A DNA stretch of 64,000 nucleotides from Nemertoderma westbladi. Lineage: Eukaryota; Animalia; Xenacoelomorpha. Under the pieces are notes generated by a model. The model worked only from the letters and a program-made list of their open reading frames with translations, ran no database searches and was not told the origin of the DNA. Made by a program: the position numbers and the translations under genes. Shown here piece after piece: positions 21,961 through 60,540 of the stretch (positions are counted from its first letter, which is position 1; each line of letters opens with the position of its first letter). The stretch is from positions 15,234 to 79,233 of the forward strand of contig JAUCBJ010007105.1 of assembly GCA_032718475.1 (NCBI GenBank). Direction: 5' to 3'.

Positions 21961-22379
21961 GTAGTCTTTGTTAGTATTACCAATAATATGAGATATACAA
22001 CTGACAAATGAAAAAAAGTAGAATAAAATGAATAAATAATGACAATAAAATAGTAACTATTATATAAATTATTATTGTAGTTTATACTTATCCATGCAAC
22101 AATGTTGTCGTTCAAAAACAAAAATTAATTTGAAAAGCTGAAAAATAATTAAATATGTAAACTTAGAGATAAACTAGAAATCAAATATATAACCAAAGGA
22201 TGCTTATGTATTTATATTCCACTGTGTAGTGTGTATGATGAATTATTTCACTATAAGGTAGCATTTGTAGTTTAACTTTAACGTAAAAACTTTTGAAAAT
22301 CCGACGTATTTTGATTAAATTACAGTAATGTAATATGCCTATTCATATTTGTACACATAAAACCCTTAGGTACTCTCGT

Positions 22380-22447
22380 GGCGTAGTGGTCAGATGGTTA
22401 AGGCGTTGGTTACATTACGTAGGTTACGAGTTCGAATCCCAGTCGGG
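22380..22447 (+). promoter_or_regulatory. tRNA-like Pol III A/B-box module in the LTR (second copy 37296-37363)
   Basis: GTGGTCAGATGGTTAAGGCGTTGG resembles the D-arm region of tRNA-Ser/Leu; B box GAGTTCGAATCCC; no complete cloverleaf. Confidence 0.6.
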
Positions 22448-22494
22448 AAATTTGTATTTTGGGGCCATTTATTTTCGTGTGGTGCTAATTGGTA

Positions 22495-22740
22495 GGCCAA
22501 TGAGAAGCGTACAGCGTAGCGAATGATGAGCCAGGCCAATCATAGGGCATAAATTATCTTATTGCTCAAATGTGAGGCAGTGGAAAATTCTGTTAGGATT
22601 CCATGTCCCAGATTAGTGTAAGGGCTGGACTGCGTTGAACGATGAGCTGGGCCAATCATAGGGCACGAAGCACTTCATTGCTCAATTGTGAAGCTGTGGA
22701 AATTTCTGTTTAGTTTCCATGTGCAATTTCTAGTATAAAA
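22495..22740 (+). promoter_or_regulatory. LTR Pol II promoter: CCAAT boxes and TATA
   Basis: Three GGCCAAT sites, two within a ~115-bp direct repeat (ggccaatcatagggca...attgctcaa.tgtga.gc.gtggaaa.ttctgtt), then TATAAAA at 22734-22740. Confidence 0.7.
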
Positions 22741-25458
22741 GACCGGTTTGCCTTCGGTTATCACGTTATTATCACCTTATGTTATGTCACTTCTTAGCAC
22801 TTTGTAAAACTCTTACTTTAGTTTCCATTTAGTTTATTTCGGTTTCTTGTTGAAACTTTATTTGATAAATCCTTTTGTAAAACTGTAAATATACTGCAAT
22901 TTCCTGACATGTTTTCTTTTGGTCCGACTTCGGGACAGCCGAACACCAGGGAGATGGCAGCCTAGACCGTTAGGCCGTAAGCAACGCAGGGAAGGGATGT
23001 CCACAACACGCTAGCGCCCACATTTGGATTGACCGCGCACCCCCTTTGCCCCTTCGAAATGCTCAACTTGCTATGCAGCGCCCGCTTTGTGAGAAAGGTA
23101 AGACTTTGTTCGACGCCCTTGCCCGCCGTAAGACCTATAGATCAGGGTAAGCGTGACACCGCACTGGACGCCGCAAATTTAGGATCAAATAATTATATCC
23201 AGACACCCCCCCTTTGTCAAGTCCTACGAACCCCTGGGTTAACCTGTACTTCCTACAGGTGCGAACTATTGCCATTCGTCAGTACGCGAGTACATATTAG
23301 GTACGGACAGCATATGTTCCATAATTTAGTGAGTCGTAGCACTGACTGTTTGGTACCGGTTCGCTTTGTAGAATGTACATTAGTACCCCCCCCCCCCCCC
23401 CCCTGTCTGGAGTTAGCTATTTGATCAGGCAAGGAGCATTTCTGCTACCGGCACACTGCTTGGCCTAGGGAGGTTTATTAATATCCTACCGCGCCTTGCC
23501 ACGTACTGATAGGTATTGCTGCTAACTACCGCAGCAACAAAGTTCTAGAATTAAATTAGTATACCAGATCAGCTAACGTACGGTAGCGATTAACCCCTAT
23601 TCTTATCTTACAACCAGAATCTGGTATTAGTGCCGATCACGGGTGTAGTTACTAACACTGTGGTTGCCCATTGGGTTGTGGATAGGAAGGAGAGAGCTTT
23701 GACGTCATTCGTGAGTATAAAGTTCTACAAACGCGACTAGTTTATTTTAGTAGCTAGCGCACGGTATCATTTTAGTCAGAAAATCACTAAAACCTAGTAA
23801 AAGGAATTACACGAAATTGTTTTATTTGTAACACACCCACACACACACGCCCTAAAACATATCGCCCTTAAAGTTCTACTAGCTATAGCGTACTATACAT
23901 TACGTTAGGTGGAAATTATTTGTATTTGTAAAATTAGGATCTGATTTGATTGCGGCAAGATAAGGAGTATTTCACTTTCGTTATTAAACTGTTGTTTGTC
24001 TGGACAACGGTATTGTTACATTTAGGCCTGACCCTTTAGACTGATTTCGTACAGGGGGATCAGTTATCGTTACATTTAGGCACGACCCCTTTTCGACTGA
24101 TTTAGGACTGTCAGTGTTGTTACGCTAGGTCTGTTAACCCACTAGCTCGTATATAAACCATATAAATCACACCGCGGCAAGTTACTGTATTTAGGACTGT
24201 CAGTGATAGTTAGGATTCGCTGCGCGGGGATTGTTTTCCCGTGAGTTTGGTCTGTTACTGTAACTGTACATCTGCCTTACCGGTTAGAGGACAGGTATCC
24301 TTCTGTCTAGTACGTAGGCATTAGACCCGCTCACGTACATAGAATAGATACAAGGCTCTGTTCCTCGCCAGTAGTCGTTTGTGTACTATATCTGTTTGTT
24401 TAGATATCCTGGACTGGGATTTGTTGTCAGATACTGTACAAGCCCGTATACATTACTAGAGTCTCATAGTAAGATACATCGTTACTAGGATCTGGTAAGC
24501 GGTATACTACTGGACCCTTACAGTAGGAAGTATTTATATAAATTAGTATATATAGTATTTCCGCCGTAGCGTATAGTATAGTTTAGAATTGTTAGCTATT
24601 GAAAGTAGGAGATATTTAAAAATTTAAGGTTAGTAAATTTAGTAATTTAGAACGTCCCCTGCTTCAGTAGGCTTTTAGGGTAGCTAGTACTTTCGTATTT
24701 AATATTTGACTAGCTAACAGTTAGTTTGTAGCACTTTGTTTTACGCCGTGTGTGTGCGGTGTTACTTTTCGGTACTTGAAAAGGTACATAGGGTTTAAAG
24801 ACCAATTTGTATCGGTACCTAGGAAGATTTTTCGTAAGCGTAGAAGTAAAACTCTCACCTTCGACCTTTTCAGGACTCAAGGACTCATTTCTGGACCGCT
24901 TCGAGGATTAGACCGCTTTTCGCAAAGTTTGGGAGACAATAAATTCGTCCGCGCCGCCGAAAAACGGAAAGACCCACGTCCGGTTTGTATTTGGGAATTT
25001 GTACGACTGGAAGATCAAAGGAACGTAAGTTTTACGACTCGCGTCGTTCAAACTTAAGAAAGCACAGTAGTACTCAAAATTTGTGGGTTTCACTGTCTAT
25101 TTAGTAGTGTTGTTGGTACATATTTTCCCGTTAGACGTTGCTGTTTGGCCTATTGTTTATACTTGTTGATCTACATTTTGTTAACGTATACCGTTATCTC
25201 ACTTATTCGTACAAATTTAGCCGGTAGGCTAGATTACTACTTATTTTATTATATACCTTGTTAGTTTATTTGTACCGGTTAGGGTATATATATGATGTAT
25301 ATATATATCAAGGTAAGTTCGACATTTGTACATTTCGACATTTTGACATTTCGACATTCTGACTTGTTGATTTATTTGTACCGGTTAGGTAAGTTTGACA
25401 CTTCAACATTCAGACACTTTGACATTTTATTACCCGTACTTGACGTATATAATAAGAC

Positions 25459-28400
25459 ATGAGTGACACACCCCATTCGACGAGATACCCACCTACCGAC
25501 TATGACTCGTGCGACCCGGACAGATCGACAGTAGACGAACCGAGAAGGAGAACCCGAGATTCCACCGATGTCACACCGCTTGCGTCGCCGGTACCCCGAA
25601 CGGAAATACCGGAAACCGCAACGCGTGGCGACGGCAGAATCGAAGATTTCCTTACCGTCCCGCAGACTAGATCGCGGGAACCGGACATGGTAAGTTCGAC
25701 TGGGAGCCAGGAGAACGTTATTAGAAGTATAGGAGGACACATGGCCCAGATTACTCGAAACCTCGGAGAAGGTTTTCGCGTTTTACGCGAGTTAACCGCC
25801 CCGATGTCGAGATACGAGTTCTACACCTTACAGGTAAGGATAGAAAGTAGGGTACATGCCTCCGTAGATAAACTTAAAGGTTTGCACGAACTTGCAGAGT
25901 TGCGTGGCGACAACTTTACTCAGGTAACGATAGTAGATAAATTGGTAAGTGCGAGAGAAAGCCTTATCCAGTTTAAGTCGGTGATAAGATTGGCTCAACA
26001 GGAGCAGTTTGACCAACTGCTAGGTGAGTCAGTTTCGGACGCGTTGTTACAACCCGAAGAGGAAGAAGAACTCTACTGCCTGGACGGAAGGTTGGAAACG
26101 CTGACCAATTTTCTTCGTAGATGCGGCGTACCGATCGACGAACCGGAAGTCGAACCGCGAGGGACGACGGAAGTTCTCACTACGGAAGGCTCGCGAGCCT
26201 ACCAACATCCACCACTGGATAGATCGTTCGTTAGCGTACGGAGCGACGTTGGCAACGTTGGCGACGTTAGTAGAACAGCGTCTGGAATTACTCGACAACA
26301 ACAGGAGGTGGCACGCCGACAACAAGTCGCCGAGGAAGAAGCGCGACACCAGATGGCACAGATCGCCATCGAAGGAGAGAAACAACGTAGAGAAGACGAG
26401 GCAAGAATTGCACAACTCAAGGCGCAAGCTGAATTCGAAGCATCAGAAATGCGCAGACTGGAGGAGGACTTAGCACGGCAGAAGGCAGCATCCGACGCTC
26501 GTGCCAAGTTGGAGGCGCGGCAAATAAACGCTCGATTAGCTATACAGGAAGCGGAATTAGCGGCACAACAACAGGATGCAGATCGACGCGAAAGGGAGAT
26601 GCAACTACAGTTCGAATTGAATCGTAGATCGCGCGAGACAGCGAACGCGCAAGCGGACCTCGAACTCGACGCGAGAGATAGATCTATGAGATCGCGAACT
26701 GGACACGACTTGTCTGCCCTGGATCGTATGGAAGCTCGATATCGCGGAATACAGAAGCGGATCGAGGAAGGAAGCGTGGGAGCAATAGATCGAGGAGAGG
26801 AGTTCGTCGAGGATTACTGTAAACGTTTTCCCCAAGTTATTCCTATGCTCAAACCCACGACTCCGATAAAACCGGTCTTTGTTACGAAACCTAAGGAAAT
26901 AACGCCTGTGCGCCCGACGCAAGGTAGCAGGTTTGTTGTGACGGAAATACCGCAACCTAGGGCGACTTCATCGCCGATTCTCGCAGGTAACATAACTAGT
27001 CCACCTACTGTAAGCCGTAGTTTACTTGTGGAGAGAGACGAACCTGCGTTTATGACAGTAAAACAGGTGAGTAAACCATTGCAAGTTAAACCTGTGACGT
27101 GCTGCGCGAACCCAGTCATTTATAAACCTACAGTAGAACTTAACTCAGATGTTTTTACTAGACCTCTCACCCAATGTTTAACGAGACCTACGACTTCGTG
27201 GAAGGCTTGCGAGCCTACCGAACAACGAGGAGCCGTAGATCCCAGACCACGACGAACTCGACCAAGGATAATACGCCGGACGCGAACCCGCCAACCACCT
27301 TATCCGGACGACAGCGACTCATCTAGCGACTCGGAGTCGACGGAACGGGAAATATTCCGTACTGGAGCGGCAGCGGCAGCGGATTACAAACAGGAGGAAC
27401 GATCGACGAACCCATACATCGACAATCCACCTCGAGAAACACCCCAACAGAAACCCACGTTGCAACCAGCGGAAGCGATTAGCACCAACAGACTCGCCGA
27501 AATAATGCGACCTGTAGCGGACCGACTAGCTCAGATAGAAGAGCGACTCGAAGCGCAACCGTCGGATCGATCACGAACCAGCGTGGAATTGGAACAACCT
27601 AGACAACATCGACCACCGAGGAGAGAACAGGAGACTAGACGGACTCCGACACATCGAGAAGATGATCCCGTTAATAATTCCTACCGACGAACAACGCGCG
27701 GAAGGGAGCGACTGGACGACGCCACCGAACAGGGACGCGGACAGTTGGATTTAGTTAGCGAGATTGCGAAATTCGCGGCTAGACACGGATTACCGGCACA
27801 GCAACCGCCGAAGTTCTCTGGCAACGCGAAACACTGGCGCACACTGGTAGACTACGTAGAGTCCCAGATCGCTAAGTGTGCTTTCACCTCGACGGAGAAG
27901 TTTAACTACTTGCTCCAAGTTCTGTCTGGTGAGCCGAAACGATTAGCGGAAACCTTTATTGGTGTTCCCGATGCCTTTGAGTTGGCGTACGACCGTTTAT
28001 ATTCGATTTACGGCGGTAATGTCGCCATGGCTAAATCCATTATTGAAGACCTCTGCAGAGGAGGCAATATTTCGAGACCGATCGACCTTTTACGACTCGC
28101 GGACGAAATAAAGAACGCTATAGGGACTTTACGGTCCATTGGACAACTCGAGTACGCTAACGCACCGACGGTTCTCATTCGAATAATCGGTCGACTTCAC
28201 CATCGACTACGACGAGAATGGCGACGCATCGAGTACCAGCGCGAAGAGGCCGGAGGGTTATTAAAACACACCGATGTCTATCAACTTATTTCACGGGAGG
28301 CCGTGATCGAGACTCGATCGAACTATACCGATCACCATATCGCGGCGGAAGGGATAACTGTTTCTGCGCCGAATCGGACTAAACCTTTTCCGACGAACGC

Positions 28401-31400
28401 GAAGGCCGTTACTTACGCCACCCCTACTGAGACTTCTAAAGTTCTGACGCCTATCGGCACCACGCAGCCACGACAACAGTTGCCGGCGGACTTTGTGGGA
28501 TGCTCATACTGCGAGCGGAATGGCAGAAACCATAGCGGACATAAACTACGTGCATGTCGCGCTTTTAAAGAGTTAGGGATCGAGGAGAGGAGACTCCAAA
28601 TCCGATCTCTAGATTCCTGTTGGAGATGTATGAAGCCAGGACACGTCCGGAAGGATTGCCCGAGCGACGATACATGTTCTCTGTGTGGACGTAACCATGA
28701 CGCGTTGCTTCACACAACCAGTCATACTCCGACCAGACGCTTTCGACGAGAGCATCCAGATAAAGCGGCTAGATGCGACGCGCTTTATAAGGAGCGTGCG
28801 CCGCGCGAGATCCGTACCTTTTATACCGACTGTATGGATCAGTCAGGATCATCGGACGAGGACGAGGAGGAAGACGACACTTTCTACGTGCATGCAGGTG
28901 AGGAACAGCCATCGATAACGCTCCTCACACAGAACCAATTGAAAGGGTTTAGCGTGATTCCTATAAAGATTACCGGAACCCGAGGGAGCAAGCGCATATA
29001 CGCCATCTTAGACTCTGCGTCATCGCATAGCTATGTCGACGAACAAGTAGCTGACGTAGTTACGGACTTGAGTCAAGGTAAGACTGCTCAGTATACTGTA
29101 AGCAGCATGCATGGTAAGAGAGCGATCCCTGTGACAAGAGTAAAACTAACTTTAGACACTCTTCTTTCCAAAGCGGAACACAGCAAGGAGGAGCGCTCAT
29201 TACTTCCGGTAAGAAATTTGACCTTTGCAGCTACGAAGGACTTTAGTAACTTGCTCGGCCCTGTGCCAGAGCAATCTCCGGAAGATCGTAAGTATTTCCG
29301 ACACCTTGGAATACCGGAATGTCCTGTTAATTATCGTTCCATTGCGATGTTAATTGGGACAGACCAGTTTAACTTACATCAGGTATGGGAGACACGCCCA
29401 TCTGTTATTACAGCGGGCAACCCCTACGCATGTAGAACTCCCATAGGTTGGTATACTAGAGCACCAATACGTTCACTAGAGGTAAGTGACCAGGAGGACG
29501 ACGTTTTGAGTACGTGTAGTTTATTGACTAACACGATAGATAATTCTCCTTCACACTCCTGTGGTCCAATTGTACGGACGGCACTACGACAGACTTGCGT
29601 CACTAACGCAGACGCCACCGATACTGACGTAACCGATCTGGACACGACCATACGGACCTCTGACTTACAACTACTTGCAGTAGACCAGGTTGTATTGACT
29701 ACTGAAGACCTGAGGGTTGTTGCCGTGGATGACTCGATGAACGAGGATTTTGGAAGGCTTGTGAGCCTACCGAAAAATCCGAAGGTCATTGACCCCACCC
29801 ACCAGGCCTCGACACCGGTCGTTGATCTTGGAAGGCTTGCGAGCCTACCGATAGATCAAGAGGTTGTCAAACCGCCGCACGACAATTCGACGCCGACTAG
29901 TGACACCGGAAGGCTTGCGAGCCTACCAGACACATTGACACTAGCCACCGCAGCGGACGAAGACGTGGACGAGGACCATGGCGCAGTGCAAGCAGCGCTT
30001 GACCGACTGCTGACTGAACGGACCATACAATGGTTGGAACAGGACTCAGCAGAACCCGGTAGTTACGAGACCGCTATGTCAGAACAGGAAAAACGGTCAT
30101 TAAATATTATGAGAGATACCATTCGCCAGACCGCGAATGGCCACTATGAGGTTGGTATGTTGTGGCGCAATGGACAACCAAAGCTCGTTAACAATTACCC
30201 GCTTGCTTTGAGGCGACTCAAATCAATAAGGCAGCGATTGTTGCGAGACGAGATGGCCCATATGCAATACAATACACAACTTCAGACGTATCTCCAAAAG
30301 GGATACGCCATTAGGATGCTAAATCCTGAGGTAACTACAGAACAGACATATTACCTGCCACATCATTTTGTTCGACACCCGGACAAACCTGGCAAGGTGC
30401 GTGTAGTCAACGACTGCGCTGCGCTTTACCAAGGGATGTCTATGAATAGCGAACTGATGGACGGGCCGAATATGAATAATTACCTCATGGGAGTCCTAAT
30501 GCGTTTTAGACAACGCAAAGTGGCTTTCACCTGTGACGTAGAGGCCATGTTTCACCAGGTTAAGGCTTTGGAGCGGGACAGGGACAGTTTAAGGTTTCTT
30601 TGGTATCCGGACGGAAATTTACAACTTCCGCCAGAAACTTACCAAATGCAGGTAAGAGTATTTGGAGCCAGGGACAGCCCCAACTGCACCATGTACGCAT
30701 TAAAGCAGACAGCATTGGACAGACGAGACCAATTTGACCCAGAAGTAGTTCGGACCGTGGAACGAGATTTCTACGTGGATGACGGCCTCAAGAGTTGTGA
30801 CACCTTGGAGCGCGCTACAACCGTAGCACACCAACTCCAGGATTGTCTCGCTGAGGGCGGATTTCACCTGACGAAGTTCGCTTCCAACGAACCCGAACTG
30901 GTGAACTCATTTGACCCGACGGATCGTAGCGGAGGTGATTTAGACTTAGACCTAGAACCACTGCCGACGACCAAAGTATTAGGACTTAGTTGGGACCCTA
31001 ACACCGACAATTTTAGGGTACGTGTAAGGTCCAACGACCAGACTAGACCTCTCACTAAGAGGACTTGCTTATCGACCATGAGTCGATTGTATGACCCATT
31101 GTGTTTCATTAGTCCAGTGATCCTACATGCTAGGATCATACTCCGCAGCATTTGGCAAGCCGGACTGGAATGGGACGATCCCATCCCAGAAAAGTTAGCT
31201 GAGCGATGGAGGGACTGGGAAGCCCAACTGACGTTCCTACAAGACTATACCATACCGAGGGTATACTTTCCTTTGCAAACCACCTTTCCTGCCGATTTAG
31301 AGCTTCACAGCTTTAGTGACGCTAGCAAGGATGGATTGGGGGTTACATTATACCTTAGACGACAAGTGACATCGGACAGCTACGATGTATCTCTCGTTAC

Positions 31401-32391
31401 TTCAAGAGCTAGAACAATGCCATTGAAGTATATGACTGTACCTCGTGGGGAGCTGCAAGCCGGGACGATATCCACCGATATTGTCAGTCTAGTTCAACGC
31501 GAGCTGGAGGCTAACTTGAAGGTCACATATTGGACGGATGCGACGTTGGTACTTTGGTACATAAACAACGAAACATTCGAGTTCAAGACTTTCGTAGCCA
31601 ACAGACGGGCTGAAATACTAGACCGGTCGCTCAAACAAGATTGGCGTCACTGTCCAGGGAAGCTGAACCCAGCTGACATCGCGTCACGGGGGATGCAACC
31701 ACTTGACTTTTGTAAACCGGACAATAAATCCTTTTGGTTTAGAGGACCCGATTTCCTACAGCGACCATCAGACGAATGGCCACCGTTATTCGACGCGACA
31801 ACCAACACCATACCAGAGGGTGCCGAGATAAAACTCGACAAGGTTGTCAAGTCTAAAGCGAAAGCCAACGCCAAGGTCAAGAGGAAAAAAGGACGGACGA
31901 AATCTGATGACCTGGACGCCAGACCTGACATTACGCCAGACGTCTCGCCAGACACTCGACCAGACGCTTGTACGAATCCTTCGCCGGATGTTCCGCGGGA
32001 GATTTCACCAGACGTTTCGCCGGATTGTTCACCAGATTACTCGCCAGATTATTCACCAGAAGAGATACCAGATTGTTCTCCGGATTGTTCGCCAGATTGT
32101 TTGATGGAACTCTCGACAGAATGTCTACCGGACGTCTCACCAGACTGTTCACCAGACATCTCGACCGACTGTCCACCAGACTTTGAACCAGACTTTCTGA
32201 CGGAAGTTACGCTAGACAGACTTTGGGACCGACGACCGGACATTTCGCCGGATGTTCCGCGCTATGTCTCACCAGACGTCTCACCAGACTGTTCACCAGA
32301 CGCTTCGCCAGACTGTCTACTAGACACTCCATTAGAAGACCCATTGGAGCGGACTTTTAGAGACGTACCTAAAGAGGTGAGGTCTCTATAG
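25459..32391 (+). CDS. BEL/Pao Gag-protease-RT-RNase H polyprotein without integrase (2310 aa)
   Basis: Coiled coil, PPKFSGN, three Cys/His knuckles (CWRCMKPGHVRKDC, CSLCGRNHDALLH), AILDSAS protease, YYLPHH, FYVDDGL, HSFSDAS, PRGELQA, YWTDA, NPADIASRG; uninterrupted. Confidence 0.95.
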   Translation: MSDTPHSTRYPPTDYDSCDPDRSTVDEPRRRTRDSTDVTPLASPVPRTEIPETATRGDGRIEDFLTVPQTRSREPDMVSSTGSQENVIRSIGGHMAQITRNLGEGFRVLRELTAPMSRYEFYTLQVRIESRVHASVDKLKGLHELAELRGDNFTQVTIVDKLVSARESLIQFKSVIRLAQQEQFDQLLGESVSDALLQPEEEEELYCLDGRLETLTNFLRRCGVPIDEPEVEPRGTTEVLTTEGSRAYQHPPLDRSFVSVRSDVGNVGDVSRTASGITRQQQEVARRQQVAEEEARHQMAQIAIEGEKQRREDEARIAQLKAQAEFEASEMRRLEEDLARQKAASDARAKLEARQINARLAIQEAELAAQQQDADRREREMQLQFELNRRSRETANAQADLELDARDRSMRSRTGHDLSALDRMEARYRGIQKRIEEGSVGAIDRGEEFVEDYCKRFPQVIPMLKPTTPIKPVFVTKPKEITPVRPTQGSRFVVTEIPQPRATSSPILAGNITSPPTVSRSLLVERDEPAFMTVKQVSKPLQVKPVTCCANPVIYKPTVELNSDVFTRPLTQCLTRPTTSWKACEPTEQRGAVDPRPRRTRPRIIRRTRTRQPPYPDDSDSSSDSESTEREIFRTGAAAAADYKQEERSTNPYIDNPPRETPQQKPTLQPAEAISTNRLAEIMRPVADRLAQIEERLEAQPSDRSRTSVELEQPRQHRPPRREQETRRTPTHREDDPVNNSYRRTTRGRERLDDATEQGRGQLDLVSEIAKFAARHGLPAQQPPKFSGNAKHWRTLVDYVESQIAKCAFTSTEKFNYLLQVLSGEPKRLAETFIGVPDAFELAYDRLYSIYGGNVAMAKSIIEDLCRGGNISRPIDLLRLADEIKNAIGTLRSIGQLEYANAPTVLIRIIGRLHHRLRREWRRIEYQREEAGGLLKHTDVYQLISREAVIETRSNYTDHHIAAEGITVSAPNRTKPFPTNAKAVTYATPTETSKVLTPIGTTQPRQQLPADFVGCSYCERNGRNHSGHKLRACRAFKELGIEERRLQIRSLDSCWRCMKPGHVRKDCPSDDTCSLCGRNHDALLHTTSHTPTRRFRREHPDKAARCDALYKERAPREIRTFYTDCMDQSGSSDEDEEEDDTFYVHAGEEQPSITLLTQNQLKGFSVIPIKITGTRGSKRIYAILDSASSHSYVDEQVADVVTDLSQGKTAQYTVSSMHGKRAIPVTRVKLTLDTLLSKAEHSKEERSLLPVRNLTFAATKDFSNLLGPVPEQSPEDRKYFRHLGIPECPVNYRSIAMLIGTDQFNLHQVWETRPSVITAGNPYACRTPIGWYTRAPIRSLEVSDQEDDVLSTCSLLTNTIDNSPSHSCGPIVRTALRQTCVTNADATDTDVTDLDTTIRTSDLQLLAVDQVVLTTEDLRVVAVDDSMNEDFGRLVSLPKNPKVIDPTHQASTPVVDLGRLASLPIDQEVVKPPHDNSTPTSDTGRLASLPDTLTLATAADEDVDEDHGAVQAALDRLLTERTIQWLEQDSAEPGSYETAMSEQEKRSLNIMRDTIRQTANGHYEVGMLWRNGQPKLVNNYPLALRRLKSIRQRLLRDEMAHMQYNTQLQTYLQKGYAIRMLNPEVTTEQTYYLPHHFVRHPDKPGKVRVVNDCAALYQGMSMNSELMDGPNMNNYLMGVLMRFRQRKVAFTCDVEAMFHQVKALERDRDSLRFLWYPDGNLQLPPETYQMQVRVFGARDSPNCTMYALKQTALDRRDQFDPEVVRTVERDFYVDDGLKSCDTLERATTVAHQLQDCLAEGGFHLTKFASNEPELVNSFDPTDRSGGDLDLDLEPLPTTKVLGLSWDPNTDNFRVRVRSNDQTRPLTKRTCLSTMSRLYDPLCFISPVILHARIILRSIWQAGLEWDDPIPEKLAERWRDWEAQLTFLQDYTIPRVYFPLQTTFPADLELHSFSDASKDGLGVTLYLRRQVTSDSYDVSLVTSRARTMPLKYMTVPRGELQAGTISTDIVSLVQRELEANLKVTYWTDATLVLWYINNETFEFKTFVANRRAEILDRSLKQDWRHCPGKLNPADIASRGMQPLDFCKPDNKSFWFRGPDFLQRPSDEWPPLFDATTNTIPEGAEIKLDKVVKSKAKANAKVKRKKGRTKSDDLDARPDITPDVSPDTRPDACTNPSPDVPREISPDVSPDCSPDYSPDYSPEEIPDCSPDCSPDCLMELSTECLPDVSPDCSPDISTDCPPDFEPDFLTEVTLDRLWDRRPDISPDVPRYVSPDVSPDCSPDASPDCLLDTPLEDPLERTFRDVPKEVRSL
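29740..29930 (+). repeat. Three 78-bp-spaced repeats in the PR-RT linker, each carrying the hairpin motif
   Basis: Motif starts at 29752, 29830 and 29908 (GRLxSLP). Confidence 0.9.
31924..32320 (+). repeat. 12-bp coding repeat (PDxS)n at the polyprotein C-terminus
   Basis: PDVS/PDCS/PDYS/PDIS/PDAS units. Confidence 0.9.
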
Positions 32392-33594
32392 GGGTGCGTC
32401 TAACAGGCGGCGGCAGACTCGTGAGGGTCTGGGGGCACGCTAAATCTAAATATAGTGCTAGGGAGTCACTGAAGGCCCTCGTGTCTAACGAACCATGAAT
32501 TGCCATGGTGCCGTGGTACCGTCTAGTCGGCCTGTTGCCGTACTGCCAGTCCTGTACACAGTAGGGGTGGTGGCATGGCGTGATTTGTGGTTCATGTGGT
32601 GTGAACTATGTTTTGTATGTGGGCGATCAGTGGCAGTTTGCTTGGGGCTTGGATGGTTCCATTGACCGTCAGCTGTTCCGTTTTTTTGATACTATATGTT
32701 ATTGTCTCCATGTTCAGTTGATTGGTCTTTGGTGGCATTGGAAAAACCGTCGGGTCTTGAGTTTTCTGTTGCTGTGGGTACGTGAGTACACGTGATTGTA
32801 TGTGTGGCCACTGCGAGTGGGTATGGGAACCCTTGCCAGTTGGACAAGACGCCGCTGGTATTAGTAGGACCATATCTCTACTGCGCCCCAGCATACTTTG
32901 TGCACACAAAGTTATTTTACCCTGTCAGTAAAATAAGGTACTCTCGACTTGGTGGTTGGTCGATACAATTTGTCCCCTCTGATTTGTCTTTCTCGATTTT
33001 GACCCCGATTTTGTCTTTCCCGATTTTGTCTTCTGTGTGTGCATGGTATGTGTCAGATTTTGTGTTTACCGTAGTGTACTTGATTTCGTGAACATCTGTT
33101 GAGTACACGTGTACAGGACGGGTAAGTGGTTACTTGTTCCTAGCTTTCGAGCTAGTCAGTATTGTTGAGGAACGGTGTCCCTTCAATACTGCCGGCGAGG
33201 CAGGTGAAAACGTGTCAATATTCCATGTTGGGTAGCGCAAGCCCACGTGGGACAAGACCGTCGGTTAGGCCCAAGGGCGACCTTGGTGCTCGATCGCTAT
33301 CGACTGGTCCACCTGCCGGTTGACTCTTTGTTATACTTTGAGTTGGCTCAATGTACAGTCAGGCCACAGTAAGTTGACAGTAGCCGCCCATCTGGCTACA
33401 CGTTCGACGAGCTGTGCTGGTGTGATCGGGGGACCGAAAACAGAACCCGGGAAGCATCGGGCCACCCTGCGGCCCGGTTATGTCTAAACGACTGATAGAA
33501 ATGTCAGTCGGACTGGCCCCCAGGGTGGTGGAAACACGTCCGCCTTAGTGGGTGCGCCTCGGGGAGGAGCCCAGAAGGACGAAAGTGACCAAAT
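32392..33594 (+). other. Non-coding, hairpin-rich spacer between RNase H and integrase ORFs (candidate structured cis-acting RNA)
   Basis: Stops in the frames checked; stems capped by GTGA (32414-32431), TTCG (33140-33155), GCGA (33271-33286) and GAAA (33489-33510). Confidence 0.6.
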
Positions 33595-35412
33595 TTGACT
33601 TCTTTGGACGACAGAGTTGTGGCCACAGGGATTACACTCCGCTCGAAGAAGGTACTTGACTTACCTACAGGTAAAGTGGTGACTAAGGTTAGGAAGCTTA
33701 CAGGCTCACAGGAACACACTGACACTGTAGAGTTGAAACCATTACTGCCAGTCGACACATTAGGTGCGGACGGCAAAGGTAAGACCGTAGAGATTGACGT
33801 ACTTGGGGACTCAGACAAACCTACCGGAAGGCCCGTGGGCCTACCAAGTCCAGACAAGTATCCACACTACGACTACACCTTACCCGATGACGTCACTAAC
33901 ACTTACGTTGACAGGATAGTGAACCTAACTAGATCATGGACTGACGCGTGCCGCAAGTTAGCATGGCTCAAACGATTGAGACAATATGCCAGAGGCAAAC
34001 GCGACTTTCCTAGAAGACTTACCTTAAAGGAAATTGAACACTGTGAAGTTGATATCATTCGACATTATCAATTGCGATATTTCGCACGAGAGTTCACAGC
34101 GATCAAACAAGGTAAACAGATTAAGTCTTCACCGATTTTGAGTTGGAGTCCGATTATTTACCGGGGCTTACTTTGTCACAAGTCCAGACTCCAAAACATC
34201 GACTTTGCACTTGACTTTAGGTATCCTATCATCATACCGCAACACCATGAGTTACAGCGCGCTATGATACTGGACGCACATGTACAACTCAAACACGTAG
34301 GTAGACACCACTGTCTATCATACTTACGCTCGAGGTTTGTACTGATTAGACCTAGTAAGGCACTGAGTTCAGTAACACGGAACTGTATTATTTGTAAGAA
34401 GGTGCACGCGAGGATAGGACACCAAGAAATGAGTGAACTACCATTAGCTAGATTACAGGCATTTAGACCCCCTTTCACTGAGACAGGGATAGACTGTTTT
34501 GGACCCATAATCGCGAAACGCGGAAGGGTACAGGTAAAACGTTGGGGATTGATCTTCACTTGCATGGCCAGCAGAGCTGTCCATATAGAGCGAGTGACAG
34601 ACTTGTCCACCAATGCCTTTATCCTAGCCTTACGGCGATTTATCGCTAGACGTGGATTGGTCAAATCCATATACTGCGACCAAGGGACAAACTTTGTGGG
34701 TGCACGGAACGAGATAACCAGAGCTTTGAGAAAATTGGACCAAAACCAGATTTCCGAGGAACTACGTCCTCACCGTATTGTTTGGTTTTTCAACACTCCA
34801 GACAGTCCGTGGAGAGGCGGCGTTTGGGAAAGGCTGATTGGCTCAATAAAGACAGCTATGGCTAAAGTAGTACCGACGCAACACATCTTGACAGACGACC
34901 AACTGACGACGTTACTAATAGAAATCGAAGCAATCTTAAATACCAGACCGATCGCTTTGATCCCAGACAATAACGACGTACGGTTTGCCTTGACACCAGC
35001 GCACCTGCTTATGCAGGCGCCGACGACATTGTTGCCCATTTCGGTACCCGTTGATAGTGACGGATACGGCAACAAGGCTTGGAAAATCACTCTATTACTT
35101 GCAAATAAATTCTGGGAAATATGGCAGAAATATTATTTGCCCTCTATTTCGACCAGAACCTCTTGGTATCTAAATACCCGATGTTTAAGACGTGGTGACC
35201 ATGTCTTATTGGCTGAAGCTAATCTGAGAAGACGGTTTTGGCTGACTGGAGTCATTTTGACCACGCACCCTACATCTGGTGTAGTGAGGACAGTTACTGT
35301 ACGGACTATCGACGGACGTACCGTAGATAGGCCTGTACAACGTCTCGTACTCCTTGAGGAGACTAGAAACGAGACGGGAGACTACAAATCTCCACCCAAT
35401 ATTAGTAAATAG
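33595..35412 (+). CDS. Separate BEL/Pao integrase ORF (true start unknown; first ATG at 34264)
   Basis: H..H...CxxC (HVQLKH...CIICKK), GIDCFGP, YCDQGTNFVG, GVWERLIGSIK, LNTRPI, LTPAHLL, GVVRTVTV, RPVQRL; catalytic D-D-E intact. Confidence 0.93.
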   Translation: MTSLDDRVVATGITLRSKKVLDLPTGKVVTKVRKLTGSQEHTDTVELKPLLPVDTLGADGKGKTVEIDVLGDSDKPTGRPVGLPSPDKYPHYDYTLPDDVTNTYVDRIVNLTRSWTDACRKLAWLKRLRQYARGKRDFPRRLTLKEIEHCEVDIIRHYQLRYFAREFTAIKQGKQIKSSPILSWSPIIYRGLLCHKSRLQNIDFALDFRYPIIIPQHHELQRAMILDAHVQLKHVGRHHCLSYLRSRFVLIRPSKALSSVTRNCIICKKVHARIGHQEMSELPLARLQAFRPPFTETGIDCFGPIIAKRGRVQVKRWGLIFTCMASRAVHIERVTDLSTNAFILALRRFIARRGLVKSIYCDQGTNFVGARNEITRALRKLDQNQISEELRPHRIVWFFNTPDSPWRGGVWERLIGSIKTAMAKVVPTQHILTDDQLTTLLIEIEAILNTRPIALIPDNNDVRFALTPAHLLMQAPTTLLPISVPVDSDGYGNKAWKITLLLANKFWEIWQKYYLPSISTRTSWYLNTRCLRRGDHVLLAEANLRRRFWLTGVILTTHPTSGVVRTVTVRTIDGRTVDRPVQRLVLLEETRNETGDYKSPPNISK

Positions 35413-36201
35413 ATGTGGGACCTTGGTTGGCCGCCACATAGACCTACTGTATTTTAGTTATTTGTATTTGTATTACTGTACGTGCATTTGTAATCCTCTT
35501 CACTGTAGATAGAGACAGCGGTGGAATTCCATTGTCTTTATACGTGAACATGGAGGGTAGTACCCTTATGTATCACATAGGAGCGGGATTGTGTGTACAG
35601 TAGGAATGGAATTCCACTTGGAACCCACAAGTGAGACAATTTTTCAAAAATTATTAGACAAATCCATTTGTTTGGATTTAAATTTAAGAAAAACGATTCT
35701 CCAGTGAAAGCAAATTCTAGAATACAGCTAGATAAAATTAAAATTGGGGAGGACAAGAGCGGATGGAAGGCTTGCGAGCCTACCGATAAATTTTTTTTGG
35801 AAAAAGAAAATCGGCCTTGTTCTACGTAGTCGTGTCTACTATTATTTTGACCAATTAATTCTCGACTGCACTATTTTCTTGGGAAACGTAGTTTGGGAAA
35901 TTAAAAGGTGAGTATTTTAGACTCGCGGCTAGTTTACCCGGAATTCGTTTTTTATCGGCACATTTTTGGATTAGGAGCCAGTGCGAAATCACGCGAACCC
36001 GAAGTCATTAGGCAAAATGGGTTGGGGTTTAGAGCAGAGTTGAGCCAAAAGCCGACAAACTCTAAGTCACCTCACATCTAACCTCTGTTTGTGCTTCCTC
36101 TAGTAGAAACACTATTATCAAAGATCCACGCAGGAATAGGAGCACCAGGCGCCGTTCAACCGATATGGGGCCAAAACTTTAACCTGTTTGGAGTGGAGAG
36201 T

Positions 36202-36696
36202 ATGGCTAGGAGTACAGCCAAGCTTGCTAAATCCAAGGCGGATCCAAACGTCACGCGACAGCGATTGGACGCTTATAACAAAACAGCGGAGGAGTTACGC
36301 GCGGAGTTCAAAGCGTTGTACCCCTACGATGCGTTATGCGACGCCAGCGACGTTTGCGAGAACCCCGAGCTGATATTAGCCAAACCACCAAAGTCTGCGT
36401 TACCAAGAAGGCGGTCGTTTCATCTCCCGTCGTCCCCTTTCCTAGCGTTTTGGAACCACCGACAACTCGACGCCGAAGTCCGAGCCCAGTTCGACCTCGA
36501 CCACCACCCAATCGCAATAGAGGACGTGGACGAGCCCGCTCAGCGAAGGAATAGGAAGCGAGTGGAAGGAAGGCTTGCGAGCCTACCGATTTGGATATTA
36601 TATTTGGATATTATATTTGGGTATTTATATCGGACGTTGGGTTTGGAAGAACGAGATATGGAAAGGAAGGCTTGCGAGCCTACCGTTAGCAATTGA
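36202..36696 (+). CDS. Additional 3' ORF of unknown function (~164 aa from the ATG)
   Basis: ATG in good context (agtATGG); GC-rich coding-like island between AT-rich UTR segments; hydrophobic stretch near the C-terminus. Confidence 0.5.
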   Translation: MARSTAKLAKSKADPNVTRQRLDAYNKTAEELRAEFKALYPYDALCDASDVCENPELILAKPPKSALPRRRSFHLPSSPFLAFWNHRQLDAEVRAQFDLDHHPIAIEDVDEPAQRRNRKRVEGRLASLPIWILYLDIIFGYLYRTLGLEERDMERKACEPTVSN

Positions 36697-37151
36697 TGCT
36701 CAGGAGAATATATCCAGACCAGCAGGACGAACTTTTCAGTTCGTCAGGAGGACATTATTGAAAGTTATTAGCGCATTATGTTTATATTAAATTTGGACTG
36801 ATTTAATTTGGTGAAGGTTTATTATGTATATTTACAATATATAAAGATTTATCGAAAGAGTTTGATTTATTTGTTCGATTTGTTTGATTTATTTGTTCTG
36901 ATTTGTTTATTTGCTTATATTGATAACCGAAAGCCTTTTTTTTGTATTTTAGGCACTAAAGTTAATTCGTAAATTTGTATTTGTATGTACGATCGATTGT
37001 ATTTACGCCGTATCTGCAATATTAAGTATGCAATGATTAGATAGTGATTATATTTTATATTTTAGGCCCTACCAGTAAATTTAGAAATAGTTTGTAGATA
37101 TTTTATATTTGATTGGTGAAAACAGTCTTACTTACTGTTTTCATGGAGCGG

Positions 37152-39454
37152 TGATGAATTATTTCACTATAAGGTAGCATTTGTAGTTTAACTTTAACGT
37201 AAAAACTTTTGAAAATCCGACGTATTTGGATTAAATTACAGTAATGTAATATGCCTATTCATATTTGTACACATAAAACCCTTAGGTACTCTCGTGGCGT
37301 AGTGGTCAGATGGTTAAGGCGTTGGTTACATTACGTAGGTTACGAGTTCGAATCCCAGTCGGGAAATTTGTATTTTGGGGCCATTTATTTTCGTGTGGTG
37401 CTAATTGGTAGGCCAATGAGAAGCGTACAGCGTAGCGAATGATGAGCCAGGCCAATCATAGGGCATAAATTATCTTATTGCTCAAATGTGAGGCAGTGGA
37501 AAATTCTGTTAGGATTCCATGTCCCAGATTAGTGTAAGGGCTGGACTGCGTTGAACGATGAGCTGGGCCAATCATAGGGCACGAAGCACTTCATTGCTCA
37601 ATTGTGAAGCTGTGGAAATTTCTGTTTAGTTTCCATGTGCAATTTCTAGTATAAAAGGCCGGTTTGCCTTCGGTTATCACGTTATTATCACCTTATGTTA
37701 TGTCACTTCTTAGCACTTTGTAAAACTCTTACTTTAGTTTCCATTTAGTTTATTTCGGTTTCTTGTTGAAACTTTATTTGATAAATCCTTTTGTAAAACT
37801 GTAAATATACTGCAATTTCCTGACATGTTTTCTTTTGGTCCGACTTCGGGACAGCCGAACACCAGGGAGATGGCAGCCTAGACCGTTAGGCCGTAAGCAA
37901 CGCAGGGAAGGGATGTCCACAACACGCTAGCGCCCACATTTGGATTGACCGCGCACCCCCTTTGCCCCTTCGAAATGCTCAACTTGCTATGCAGCGCCCG
38001 CTTTGTGAGAAAGGTAAGACTTTGTTCGACGCCCTTGCCCGCCGTAAGACCTATAGATCAGGGTAAGCGTGACACCGCACTGGACGCCGCAAATTTAGGA
38101 TCAAATAATTATATCCAGACACCCCCCCTTTGTCAAGTCCTACGAACCCCTGGGTTAACCTGTACTTCCTACAGGTGCGAACTATTGCCATTCGTCAGTA
38201 CGCGAGTACATATTAGGTACGGACAGCATATGTTCCATAATTTAGTGAGTCGTAGCACTGACTGTTTGGTACCGGTTCGCTTTGTAGAACGTACATTAGT
38301 ACCCCCCCCCCCCCCCCCCCCTGTCTGGAGTTAGCTATTTGATCAGGCAAGGAGCATTTCTGCTACCGGCACACTGCTTGGCCTAGGGAGGTTTATTAAT
38401 ATCCTACCGCGCCTTGCCACGTACTGATAGGTATTGCTGCTAACTACCGCAGCAACAAAGTTCTAGAATTAAATTAGTATACCAGATCAGCTAACGTACG
38501 GTAGCGATTAACCCTTATTCTTATCTTACAACCAGAATCTGGTATTAGTGCCGATCACGGGTGTAGTTACTAACACTGTGGTTGCCCATTGGGTTGTGGA
38601 TAGGAAGGAGAGAGCTTTGACGTCATTCGTGAGTATAAAGTTCTACAAACGCGACTAGTTTATTTTAGTAGCTAGCGCACGGTATCATTTTAGTCAGAAA
38701 ATCACTAAAACCTAGTAAAAGGAATTACACGAAATTGTTTTATTTGTAACACACCCACACACACACACCCACACACACACGCCCTAAAACATATCGCCCT
38801 TAAAGTTCTACTAGCTATAGCGTACTATACATTACGTTAGGTGGAAATTATTTGTATTTGTAAAATTAGGATCTGATTTGATTGCGGCAAGATAAGGAGT
38901 ATTTCACTTTCGTTATTAAACTGTTGTTTGTCTGGACAACGGTATTGTTACATTTAGGCCTGACCCTTTAGACTGATTTCGTACAGGGGGATCAGTTATC
39001 GTTACATTTAGGCACGACCCCTTTTCGACTGATTTAGGACTGTCAGTGTTGTTACGCTAGGTCTGTTAACCCACTAGCTCGTATATAAACCATATAAATC
39101 ACACCGCGGCAAGTTACTGTATTTAGGACTGTCAGTGATAGTTAGGATTCGCTGCGCGGGGATTGTTTTCCCGTGAGTTTGGTCTGTTACTGTAACTGTA
39201 CATCTGCCTCACCGGTTAGAGGACAGGTATCCTTCTGTCTAGTACGTAGGCATTAGACCCGCTCACGTACATAGAATAGATACAAGGCTCTGTTCCTCGC
39301 CAGTAGTCGTTTGTGTACTATATCTGTTTGTTTAGATATCCTGGACTGGGATTTGTTGTCAGATACTGTACAAGCCCGTATACATTACTAGAGTCTCATA
39401 GTAAGATACATCGTTACTAGGATCTGGTAAGCGGTATACTACTGGACCCTTACA
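37152..39454 (+). repeat. 3' LTR (2303 bp)
   Basis: Preceded by a short purine-rich GGAGCGG (PPT-like) and followed by TSD GTGTA. Confidence 0.96.
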
Positions 39455-50042: not shown

Positions 50043-50399
50043 TTAACTGATATTGCATCACTAGAGCTAATGCCCGAAGAAATCTGTAAACCGGAAGTAA
50101 AGAAGTTTTGGCTTCATAGACCAGACTTTCTACAACGATCGTCACTTCAATGTCCATCGTTATTTGACGCTGCTTCCAACAGTATTCCTAAGGAGGCCGT
50201 GATAAAAACAAACTCCACTGTGGAATCAAAGGAGAAAGCTAAGGTAAGCAAAAAACCGGTCGTTCCGCCAGACTGTCCACCAGATTTTCCACCAGTCTTT
50301 CCACCAGATTTTCCACCAGAAACCTCGCCGTATACGTCTCAAGACGTGTCACTGCACATTTCGCTGGATGTTCCGCGAGATGTTTCTCTTCATGTGTAA
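50043..50399 (+). pseudogene. Fragment of a diverged relative of BEL element 1 (RNase H end plus PDxP repeats)
   Basis: DIAS..LMPEEICKPEVKKFWLHRPDFLQRSS...LFDAASNSIPKEAVIK aligns to DIASRGMQPLDFCKPDNKSFWFRGPDFLQRPS...LFDATTNTIPEGAEIK. Confidence 0.85.
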
Positions 50400-50638
50400 A
50401 GAACTTGTCCAGTTGGCTAAGGAATGGTCGAGGGCTGAAGTTTGGAATTCCTATGATTTGGAGGGAGCAACAAAATCATGTCACTGATTGCTACTTCTGC
50501 ATGGTTCCTCTCATAGCTGGTCACAACAAGAAAACCAAGAAATCTCTTGTGTATCCAAAAGTTCCGTCTGTGATACTTCCAGTAGAGCACTGTGACCAGA
50601 TTCCAGTGCCAGTTCCTATTAGTATCAGTTCCTATTAA
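50400..50638 (+). pseudogene. Chapaev3-like transposase N-terminal fragment
   Basis: FGIPMIWREQQNHVTDCYFCM...YPKVPSVILPVEH motif. Confidence 0.65.
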
Positions 50639-51566
50639 GGAAACTGACGATTCAACAACTGGAACTGACGACGTTTATCATATAGTTGTATATTTTTAGG
50701 TTCATTGTCATTGTCAAAGTAATATAATATAATATAAAATGTAAAATAATTTGTTCTAATAATTAAGGACCTCATAACAGGAAAAATATATCAGCCCAAT
50801 AATTGGTAAGCAGAATATAAATAGGTCAAATTAACAATATATCAGAGGTCACATAAACTTGTTTTGCAACCGACCCATATACTATATTCCACGAATTTAT
50901 GTCAGTTGGTCATGCCGTACCTTCAATGGCTTTAATTAAGTGATGAAATTCCTCCATTATGTAATCTCCTCCCAGGAGACAATGTGCGTGACATTGCCTC
51001 GGTTTGTCTGATGTGTTCCAGAATATTGTCTGTCAAGCGAAGATGTTGGGTGAGATAATATGATGAGATCATCTGATAGGTTGGATGTCTCATGATTGAT
51101 GAAAATTTCACCATGGCTGCCATATTCTTTCTTACCCCAATGTTCGCGGTATTTCAACTTTTCATAACGCGAGTTGAATATTTTTGTATTTTATTTAAAA
51201 TTGATTATTCCGATATTACTACTGGGTGCGGGACCATGGGTTTTGGGCACATTCAATAAACTGGGGGCGATTTATGGGCGAACTTTGGGGCAACTTACAG
51301 GGTACGGGAATAATTTCATAGTTATAAGGGCCAGGGGGGATGGAAAATGCAAGCAGTATTCAGGTTAGCCTGAGTACTATTAGGCCCTGGCCAACTTCCT
51401 GCTGCCTGTAGGGGTGGATTTGGTAATGCGCCAGGCCTAAAGGACAAGGACTGCCCTTAGCGGTCCCTGGCCAACAGCAGCCATTACGAGACTGAAAAGA
51501 ACTCGGACCGCTGACTGCTTGTGTCAGGGATTTGCGACGGGCACCGACGGCCCCTTAGTAGCCAAG

Positions 51567-52333
51567 CCGTTCTGGTTCTCGATGATCGAACCCCGGGGTT
51601 CGTGAGGGGTGGAGCGGACACGCGAACAGGTGGCCAACTAACGACTGCCCCCTGACCTAAGCCGTACTGGTTCTCGATGACCGATCCCTTCGGGGTTCGT
51701 GAGGGGTGGGACGGACATGCGAAAGGGCTGGCCACAGGACAGGTTTGACAAGGACTGCCCTTAGCGGTCTCTGGTCAACGGCAGCTACTACGAGCCTGAA
51801 AAGAACTCGGAACGCTGACTGCTTGTACTGGGATTTGCGACGGGAACCGACGACAGACCCCTTAGCCAAGCCGTTCTGGTTCTCGATGATCGTTCCCTTC
51901 GGGGTTCGTGAGGGGTGGAGCGGACACGCGATGGGGTCGAAAGACAAAGGACTAGACTCGACTAGACTCTACTGGCCTACCGACTGTTCGGAGCAGTTTC
52001 TCGGCTGCCGAAGCGACTACGAGCCTGAAACGGACTCGGAAAGCCTAGGTGGTTGGGTTTCTGTGACGAACCGACGGACCCCTAGCCAAGCCGTTCTGGT
52101 TCTCGATGATCGAACCCTTCGGGGTTCGTGAGGGGTGGAACGGACACGCGAACGGGTCCACCGACACGACAGACTCCTAGCCAAGCCGTACTGGTTCTCG
52201 ATGACCGAACCCTTCGGGGTTCGTGAGGGGTGGTACGGATACGCGACAGAGTCTACCGACTGGACCGACCCTTAGCCAAGCCGTGCTGGTTCTCGATGAC
52301 CGTTCCCTTCGGGGTTCGTGAGGGGTAGAACGG
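51567..52333 (+). repeat. Six ~53-nt structured repeats (kink-turn-like plus cUUCGg hairpin)
   Basis: CCGTTCTGGTTCTC-GAT-GA-Y-CGAACCC-TTCG-GGGTTCG-T-GA-GGGGTGGAACGG at 51567, 51662, 51871, 52091, 52186 and 52281. Confidence 0.85.
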
Positions 52334-52970
52334 ACACGCGACAGGGTCGACCGACACCGACACTTCGGCACTAAGACTGGGACTGAGGGAAAATCTGGGG
52401 AACATTAGGTAGGCTAAAATTCTGAGCGAACAGTGGGTTATTAAATAATATACCGTAGGGATTTATATTATCGTGTATAATTATTGTGAATATTTGGTGT
52501 ATATTGATTTGGGGAAGCCCAAAATTATTCTTAATCAAGGTTCAACAGAGTTCAGTTACATTAAAGAGTATATCCAACTAATGCAGCTTTTTCTCGACCG
52601 CAAACTTGCATCTCAGAAAATATTCCCTCCCCACAATCAATATCCGGTGACTGGCCGGGGCTCGGTGGTCTGTTAAGTCACGTCTCCAGCATCGGCGTTT
52701 TTCCCCCCTGGTGTAGGAATAACGGCAACAAAATTAAGAATAATTAATGCGGTTAATTTTGACACGGTGTCAAAATTAAGGATAATTACGGTCAACTTCA
52801 ACTGGTGGAAGTTGAAAATCCTTCAATACTCTCTACGTGCTTGCCAGCACCCACTACGAGGAAACTCTGGTATTTGAGTTGAGACAAAGTCGTGGTTTAA
52901 TTAATCAGCAAACTCGATCTAACCAACTCGTAGTCGGCAGATCACATATTTGGAGAGTTGTTAACAGGGA

Positions 52971-53162
52971 ATGGAAGTATCGATCACACCCATTGATATA
53001 ATTCAAGTTGAGCCAGGAATCTGGCACGTCGAAGTTGAGGTACAAGGAACGAACGTTGGACGATTCAGGATTACTGTTCGGGTGGTCCAAGCTGAGTACA
53101 ATACCTACGAGGAACTGTTTTACGACATCGCGTATCTAGCCATCGACGAGGCGTTACAATGA
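52971..53162 (+). CDS. 63-aa upstream ORF overlapping the gag start (ATGA)
   Basis: ggaATGG context; protein-like amphipathic pattern; its TGA overlaps the gag ATG at 53159. Confidence 0.5.
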   Translation: MEVSITPIDIIQVEPGIWHVEVEVQGTNVGRFRITVRVVQAEYNTYEELFYDIAYLAIDEALQ

Positions 53163-60109: not shown

Positions 60110-60540
60110 ATGTTGTCCGTTGCGTGCGCAGTTCGGGGCGTAGGCGGTGTAACGAGTCCAGCTGTAGATCTTGGATTGCCGCGCAACACCCCCTCTATCC
60201 CGTTATTCTGGTGGGTCCATGGTGCATCCACATGACTTCGACGATAGAGGGTTTTATGTTTCTCAGTCGCGTTATTCTGGTGGGACCGTTGCGTGGATTT
60301 TGGGGCGTAGGCGGTGTAACGAGTCCAGCTGTAGATCCCAGAATGTTGCGTAACCCATCCCACATGACTTCGTCGACTGAGCTTTATGTTGTTGGGAGTG
60401 TTATTCTGGTGGGTCCCTGGTGCATTCCACGTGACTTCACTCTCAGCGTCTTCATTGTCCGTTACGTGCGCAGTTTGGGGCGTAGGCGGTGTAACGAGTC
60501 CAGCTGTAGATCCCAGATTGCCGCGTAACACCCCTTCCAC
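60110..60540 (+). repeat. Three ~170-bp-spaced repeats in the element 2 3' UTR
   Basis: Identical 36-mer GGGGCGTAGGCGGTGTAACGAGTCCAGCTGTAGATC at 60135, 60302 and 60477; GTTATTCTGGTGGG also occurs three times. Confidence 0.9.

Follow-up and report, generated by a model that had tools for sequence, protein, structure and literature searches.

Nine near-identical hairpins along a BEL/Pao retrotransposon of Nemertoderma westbladi as candidate family-specific RNA tags

The stretch of DNA analyzed here (the window; 64 kb of contig JAUCBJ010007105.1 of Nemertoderma westbladi) contains a 17.2-kb BEL/Pao LTR retrotransposon, BEL element 1, the features of which are on the forward (+) strand. Its two LTRs (about 22236..24522 and about 37152..39454) are 2.3 kb each, have TG...CA ends, are 99.1% identical, and are accompanied by a 5-bp target duplication. 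ORF1 (25456..32391) has profile matches to Gag (DUF1759), the protease, RT, and an RNase H region (Peptidase_A17), and its Gag contains three Cys/His knuckles (aa 1016-1086; 28501..28713). The integrase ORF (33589..35412; Integrase_H2C2 and DUF5641) stands apart from ORF1, and a further ORF of 204 codons (36082..36696), hereafter the extra ORF, is located 3' of it. The BEL/Pao hallmarks DUF1759, Peptidase_A17, DUF5641, three Gag knuckles, and an integrase in the last position are all present. A single gag-pol ORF is the usual state in BEL/Pao elements; however, element 1 departs from it in that a 1.2-kb stretch precedes the separate integrase ORF. BEL/Pao elements also feature a tRNA primer-binding site starting with TGG directly 3' of the 5' LTR, and a TGG-type site was not found just past the 5' LTR of element 1. 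The span of 29 LTR-bounded BEL relatives has a median of approximately 7 kb, in contrast to the 17.2 kb of element 1. The closest protein relative of the integrase ORF was at 43% (among the best 120 of 558 matches), and the protease-RT region gave nine protein matches. Many copies of the element 1 family were present in DNA runs from three studies.

A 20-nt motif occurs nine times along element 1, always on the sense strand, and the nine starts given in the earlier note were all correct. Copies 1 (26184..26203) and 2 (27200..27219) are in gag linkers; copy 1, in the N-terminal linker, begins 1662 nt past the 5' LTR and within gag. Copies 3 (29752..29771), 4 (29830..29849), and 5 (29908..29927) belong to tandem units 1, 2, and 3 in the linker between the protease and RT. 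Copy 6 (33826..33845) is in the integrase ORF, as previously noted, but in the unconserved N-terminal linker (aa 80) outside the integrase core. Copy 7 (35765..35784) is in non-coding DNA 3' of the integrase, copy 8 (36568..36587) is within the extra ORF, and copy 9 (36665..36684) is at its end. Since copies 3-5 form a 78-nt tandem array and copies 8 and 9 start 97 nt apart, there are about six separate sites rather than nine.

Eight sites on the + strand matched the motif with 0-1 mismatches, and no match was obtained in any of 100 shuffles; the ninth site, at 33826, has four mismatches. When up to six mismatches were permitted, a scan of the 64-kb window returned only the nine sites and their own reverse complements, and the absence of the motif from both LTRs was confirmed. 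Sixteen of the 20 positions are invariant across the nine copies. Eight copies are inside ORFs, at codon offset 0 (29752, 29830, 29908, 33826, and 36568), offset 1 (27200 and 36665), or offset 2 (26184), while the copy at 35765 is non-coding; the codon offsets bear out the claim that the motif is read in all three frames and also occurs in non-coding DNA. Copies 1-6 are at places where only 0-6 of 60 other BEL polyproteins align, and, therefore, the motif occupies lineage-specific linkers. Peptides encoded by the motif were absent from the 129 relative proteins checked.

The fold that had been proposed, with two base pairs, an A.A mismatch, five base pairs, and a 4-nt loop, was reproduced in all nine copies, and the asymmetry of the A.A mismatch was retained in each of them. 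Loop positions 2 and 4 are G in 9/9 copies, and loop variation is restricted to pyrimidines: copy 1 has a CGCG loop, copy 6 has a CGUG loop above a C-G closing pair, and copy 3 has a UGUG loop. This UGUG loop is private to the copy at 29752 because nearly all family contigs carry another letter at 29762. All loop variants are self-complementary if G-U pairs are permitted, which fits dimerization. The compensatory T-A to C-G change reported at 33826 is present; however, the covariation amounts to one event, is not significant, and was reached by 58 of 500 shuffles. In a 320-nt context, the hairpin was predicted (P>0.5) for six of the nine copies on the sense strand and for five on the antisense strand. 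Thus, the sense strand does not stand out in the folding predictions. The local fold z-score was weaker than -2 in five of the nine copies. Longer lower stems were predicted for copies 3 and 4, and were rejected as a general feature of element 1 because only one of the nine copies exceeded random flanks. A search of Rfam yielded no match in the window at the gathering score and none at E<=5 in 35400-37500, and in 32200-33750 the matches were limited to three weak ones (E 0.5-5.3).

Conservation of the motif exceeds that of its own flanks. The tandem units of copies 3 and 4 are identical at 19 of 20 positions in the motif versus 30 of 58 downstream (P=4e-4). Among the six separate sites, mean identity is 18.5/20 in the motif versus 4.7/20 and 5.5/20 in the flanks, and falls to background at the motif edges. 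Variation among family contigs was assessed with 40 of 43 variants in 29700-29980, from two samples, over a range that we selected (29730-29955); one further data set contributed no contig to 29700-29980. In this test, which covers three copies and in which the motif may seed the contig alignment, 3 of 38 variable places fell in the 60 motif bases versus 10.1 expected (P=0.002, rising to 0.04 if the three variants beyond these 40 all fell in motifs). One of the three motif variants is the private loop letter of the window copy (29762). None of the 14 variable third-codon positions was inside a motif (P=0.015), and, among the same variants, 13 of 17 CpGs in the flanks vary versus neither of the two loop CpGs. 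Since three reading frames are used and variable third-codon positions are lacking in the motifs, the constraint appears to act on the nucleic acid rather than on the protein, in agreement with the earlier note. We conclude that the motif has probably been selected.

A neutral origin was considered, in which template switching, or mobility as a repeat, spread a tiny palindrome within the element and conversion homogenized its copies. Conversion among copies may also reduce variation in the test described above. Joints in family contigs showed that the tandem unit has been gained and lost among copies, so that its number varies, and copy 8 was missing from one family contig. Furthermore, the copies are at places that tolerate insertions, and template switching gives direct repeats. 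On the other hand, identity falls to background at the motif edges, and the invariance of the motif beside varying synonymous sites, seen in part and for three copies, is not expected from neutral spread. The features of mobile palindromic repeats (RPE/MITE-like) were also lacking in the window: no copy is present outside element 1, all copies share one orientation, and target duplications are inconsistent, with none at five of the nine copies and matches of 3-5 nt at the other four. Moreover, the neighboring element described below repeats the pattern with a different motif. Based on these results, we consider a neutral origin to be very unlikely. The hairpin copies may instead have arisen by short duplications and would subsequently have been kept by selection; gain and loss of copies continue in the tandem units.

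What is new in the present analysis is a second element beside element 1 with a different hairpin of its own in five copies. BEL element 2 is in the same window (gag-pol, 53096-59840), and its pol is 36-39% identical to that of element 1. The two elements were sisters in a tree of 194 integrase sequences, with weak support (0.74) and long branches. The hairpin of element 2 has a 3' bulge and a loop that reads GAAA or GCAA, and all five copies are on the + strand: three with a GAAA loop in the 5' region (starting at 51487, 51791, and 52020; 51487..52039), one in a gag linker (54352..54371), and one between RNase H and the integrase (58232..58251), for which a GCAA loop and a long lower stem were predicted. 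Of the 11 predicted pairs, five are disrupted in one copy or two. The leader of element 2 (51559..52346, + strand) also contains six units of a longer hairpin, with a UUCG loop in five of the six and G-U pairs that are conserved on the + strand. GNRA and UUCG are common stable RNA tetraloops. The possession by element 2 of RNA-type hairpins of its own favors an RNA code, and these predicted structures are the best support for a code that is family-specific and acts at the RNA level.

The earlier note had interpreted the copies as a dispersed cis-acting RNA code. Constraint on the nucleic acid, conservation against the flanks, and the RNA-type hairpins of element 2 are consistent with this interpretation, whereas the covariation is not significant, folding is neutral as to strand, and a single orientation also fits a DNA site. 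The case for RNA from element 1 alone is modest; counting for it are the A.A asymmetry retained in all nine copies, the two fixed G residues in a loop that otherwise varies only between pyrimidines, and the self-complementary loop variants. Taken together, the explanations in which a protein would bind the motif as an RNA hairpin are likely.

The alternative at the DNA level is an imperfect palindrome bound as a double-stranded site by a dimer of the element or the host, for example in family-specific anti-silencing of the type described for the VANC proteins of VANDAL transposons. The symmetric double change at 33826 also suits a dimer site, and the unvarying loop CpGs beside variable flank CpGs may reflect protection from methylation. 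VANC motifs are described as short and family-specific, present in many copies, spread through tandem repeats that are gained and lost, and different in a sister family (PMC5735166). Copies in a single orientation, as in element 1, are compatible with a DNA site, given that VANC motifs form one-directional arrays as well (PMC5735166). However, the VANC motifs in that account are 9-bp DNA sites in plant DNA transposons and are mostly non-coding, in contrast to a 20-nt hairpin with 8/9 copies in the ORFs of a retroelement. In addition, the half-sites differ at the A.A position in all nine copies, the LTR promoter has no copy, and the motifs of element 2 show GNRA or UUCG loops, a one-sided bulge, and G-U pairs. 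Therefore, a DNA site is an unlikely explanation.

We examined whether similar hairpin families are present in other BEL elements. The comparison set of 104 loci was drawn from 526 confirmed metagenome matches, of which the best 80 were taken, and from a genome collection, which contributed 24 of 24 loci. The set probably includes some duplicates, and 64 of its loci had either paired LTRs or an ORF of 1200 codons or more. Three detectors were used, all of which recovered both elements of the window, while an element 2-like pattern would be missed in short loci. A dispersed hairpin family comparable to that of either window element was not detected in the 104 loci, and neither motif was present in them at up to four mismatches. 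Five loci (L056, L091, L094, L102, and L108) had non-hairpin repeats only. L086 had flanking repeats, one of which folds but is outside the element and occurs in both orientations. Hairpin pairs were equally rare as direct (11) and inverted (12) pairs in 772 kb of the other loci. Since no such family was found in these 104 loci, the trait appears to be restricted to this lineage or host, and ordinary BEL packaging does without a hairpin family. Four motif matches in IMG/VR were single-copy, had one shared flank, and were not retroelement-like; they were taken as unrelated, and IMG/VR contained no relative of the BEL integrase. The literature searched, which excluded most subscription journals and supplements, contained no such description for BEL/Pao elements and nothing useful on extra ORFs of BEL elements.

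One candidate reader of the hairpins is the product of the extra ORF. According to this explanation, an accessory protein translated from spliced RNA would bind the hairpins as response elements and would export or stabilize the unspliced genomic RNA, in the manner of Rev or CERV. An ORF of this length was equaled by only 1 of 1000 shuffles, and it encodes two Arg-rich patches. A predicted 3' splice site with a branch point, a pyrimidine tract, and AG (36078..36106, + strand) is at its start and is the single match to this sequence pattern in the 12.6-kb internal region. Seven of the nine copies are upstream of the predicted acceptor. Since the other two are downstream, spliced RNA would also carry them. 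The combination of a GNRA loop and a bulge in element 2 recalls the targets of arginine-rich peptides, which also counts for an accessory reader. CERV of the LTR element Cer1 is described as the product of a spliced mRNA that is required for export of the genomic RNA, and, similar to the extra ORF behind its predicted acceptor, it is encoded by an ORF with no homologue (PMC10309623). In contrast to element 1, the RRE is one large structure; the extra ORF is unrelated to these proteins by sequence search, and the RNA target of CERV is unnamed in the source (PMC10309623). Furthermore, the extra ORF has no Pfam family and no homologue among 325 candidates, its predicted model (pLDDT 40, from a single sequence) is uninformative, its end runs through a short tandem repeat, and splicing is a prediction. 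A pattern search of element 2 found no comparable acceptor, and the 3' ORF of element 2 overlaps repeats. We consider an accessory protein encoded by the extra ORF to be a rather doubtful reader.

A host RNA-binding protein may alternatively have been recruited for export, germ-line transport, or escape from surveillance. In some retroviruses, RNA export is described as proceeding via a structure to which host NXF1 binds directly (PMC10309623). Both elements reside in one host, and a fixed host partner would explain why the copies are near-identical. However, two elements of the same host carry unrelated hairpins, consistent with a partner that differs between elements, and Rfam provided no match. 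Recruitment of a host protein is quite unlikely.

We tentatively favor, at somewhat less than an even chance, the explanation that the nine copies are family-specific RNA hairpin tags and candidate targets of the element's own Gag zinc knuckles in packaging or dimerization. The three knuckles in Gag and the G residues that occupy the second and fourth loop positions of all nine copies count for it on the level of sequence. The HIV-1 knuckles are described as binding G9 and G11 of the G8-G9-U10-G11 tetraloop of SL2 (PMC7599994), and the N-terminal knuckle of RSV as binding a UGCG tetraloop (PMC5035970). The invariant G residues at loop positions 2 and 4 would be presented to the knuckle pockets of Gag, and the many copies may provide avidity along the 15-kb RNA. 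Gag knuckles would thereby select, and possibly pair, the long genomic RNA of their own family. In the same sources, findings that count against this explanation are the change of the RSV loop from UGCG to GAGA, which left the in vitro specificity of Gag undiminished (PMC5035970), and HIV-1 packaging, which was unaffected by GGAG loop swaps (PMC7599994). Moreover, the GNRA loop of element 2 is not of the G2/G4 type, and, thus, one knuckle rule cannot cover both elements. The lack of such a family in the 104 other BEL loci and the two copies downstream of the predicted splice acceptor, which spliced RNA would share, also count against this explanation.

The proposed tags share features with known packaging signals. 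UGCG is the loop of RSV SL-C, G at positions 2 and 4 is as in HIV-1 SL2, and Cys/His knuckles are present in Gag in these retroviruses and in element 1 (PMC5035970, PMC7599994). However, retroviral psi is described as a set of different hairpins clustered in the 5' leader, whereas element 1 has one hairpin repeated from gag to the 3' end and a leader without a copy (PMC5035970, PMC7599994). It is known that ssRNA viruses and HBV have multiple dispersed packaging signals; similar to the copies in element 1, these are short stem-loops, many in number, that share a motif and are found along the packaged strand, coding regions included (PMC6281560). In contrast, the signals in that account are bound by capsid protein and differ from one another in both sequence and affinity, whereas the copies of element 1 are near-identical over 20 nt, are in the lineage-specific linkers of an LTR element, and are candidate binding sites (PMC6281560). 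The target of phage Mu Com, also a short hairpin, is recognized by a small zinc finger and matches the motif by eye at 15 of 19 letters (PMC6483171). However, the loop motif of the Com target, CC(N)2-3GAG, is not matched in element 1, which has C-U (PMC6483171). This comparison was made after the fact, and the resemblance is probably a coincidence or convergence.

Apart from a few models, the selection of their own RNA by LTR retrotransposons is, to our knowledge, poorly defined. The hairpin array of element 1 is real, appears to be lineage-specific, and has probably been selected. We speculate that each family of this lineage may have its own hairpin as a self-recognition code. More broadly, it is possible, though not probable, that a giant, complex BEL lineage has evolved family-specific RNA barcodes, in which a family's own hairpin is repeated in expendable linkers and read by its own protein, either the Gag knuckles or a spliced Arg-rich accessory protein, to discriminate self from non-self among related elements of one host, as an RNA counterpart of VANC. 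A 20-nt, nine-fold, family-specific hairpin and two candidate readers can be tested directly using short RNAs and small protein domains, and the two hairpin codes of two related families in one host represent a natural specificity swap. If true, these codes would add retrotransposons to the systems with dispersed packaging or export signals, and may provide new orthogonal RNA-protein pairs.

In BEL element 1, the 17.2-kb BEL/Pao LTR retrotransposon with nine plus-strand copies of the 20-nt hairpin motif, the RNase H and integrase ORFs are separated by a 1.2-kb stretch (about 32370-33590) with strong computed structure at both ends (z -2.5 and -4.0). Since contigs in three DNA runs skip this stretch, at low depth, we infer that some copies of the element lack it. 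Its left joint places a U.G pair within a predicted hairpin and its final base is G, a combination that recalls group I introns. Read on the minus strand, the stretch has GT..AG ends. A search of Rfam gave nothing here beyond three weak matches (E 0.5-5.3) in 32200-33750.

ORF1 closes with a 12-nt coding repeat (PDxS-like; 31932-32330). A related element has left a short, decayed remnant at about 50.1-50.4 kb (about 50080-50400), which carries the same repeat and lacks the 20-nt hairpin motif.

A splice-acceptor signature marks the beginning of the extra ORF of element 1 (36078-36696 together), and the ORF contains Arg-rich patches. In one diverged contig from the sequencing run X3, a motif copy lies approximately 38 nt ahead of the stretch matching 36406; the window has no copy at that site. 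In the AT-rich DNA downstream of the extra ORF, ARAGORN called a tRNA-Val at 36801-36894. Rfam did not find a tRNA at this position, and the call is probably spurious.

BEL element 2, the second BEL element in the window, has its own dispersed hairpin with a GNRA loop and a 3' bulge (51487, 51791, 52020, 54352, and 58232, all on the plus strand) and six longer hairpins of the UUCG type (51559-52346). Its 3' region contains three repeats of approximately 83 nt (60113-60537), which overlap a 167-codon ORF.

The collection of bacterial and archaeal genomes yielded 24 BEL integrase loci, most of which are probably eukaryotic contamination in MAGs. Two (L098 and L107) were located within a Wolbachia chromosome record.

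Within each 2.3-kb LTR of element 1 lies a stretch that resembles a tRNA and contains sequences similar to an A box and a B box (about 22378-22450 and 37294-37366); ARAGORN made no call on this stretch. CCAAT repeats and a TATA box come after it. A TGG primer-binding site was not found directly after the 5' LTR. The LTR site 23247-23256 resembles a 3' splice site and is also the exact complement of the ten bases that follow the 5' LTR (24523-24532). Because of this complementarity, we suggest, by analogy with the self-priming of Tf1, that element 1 may prime itself in a Tf1-like manner.
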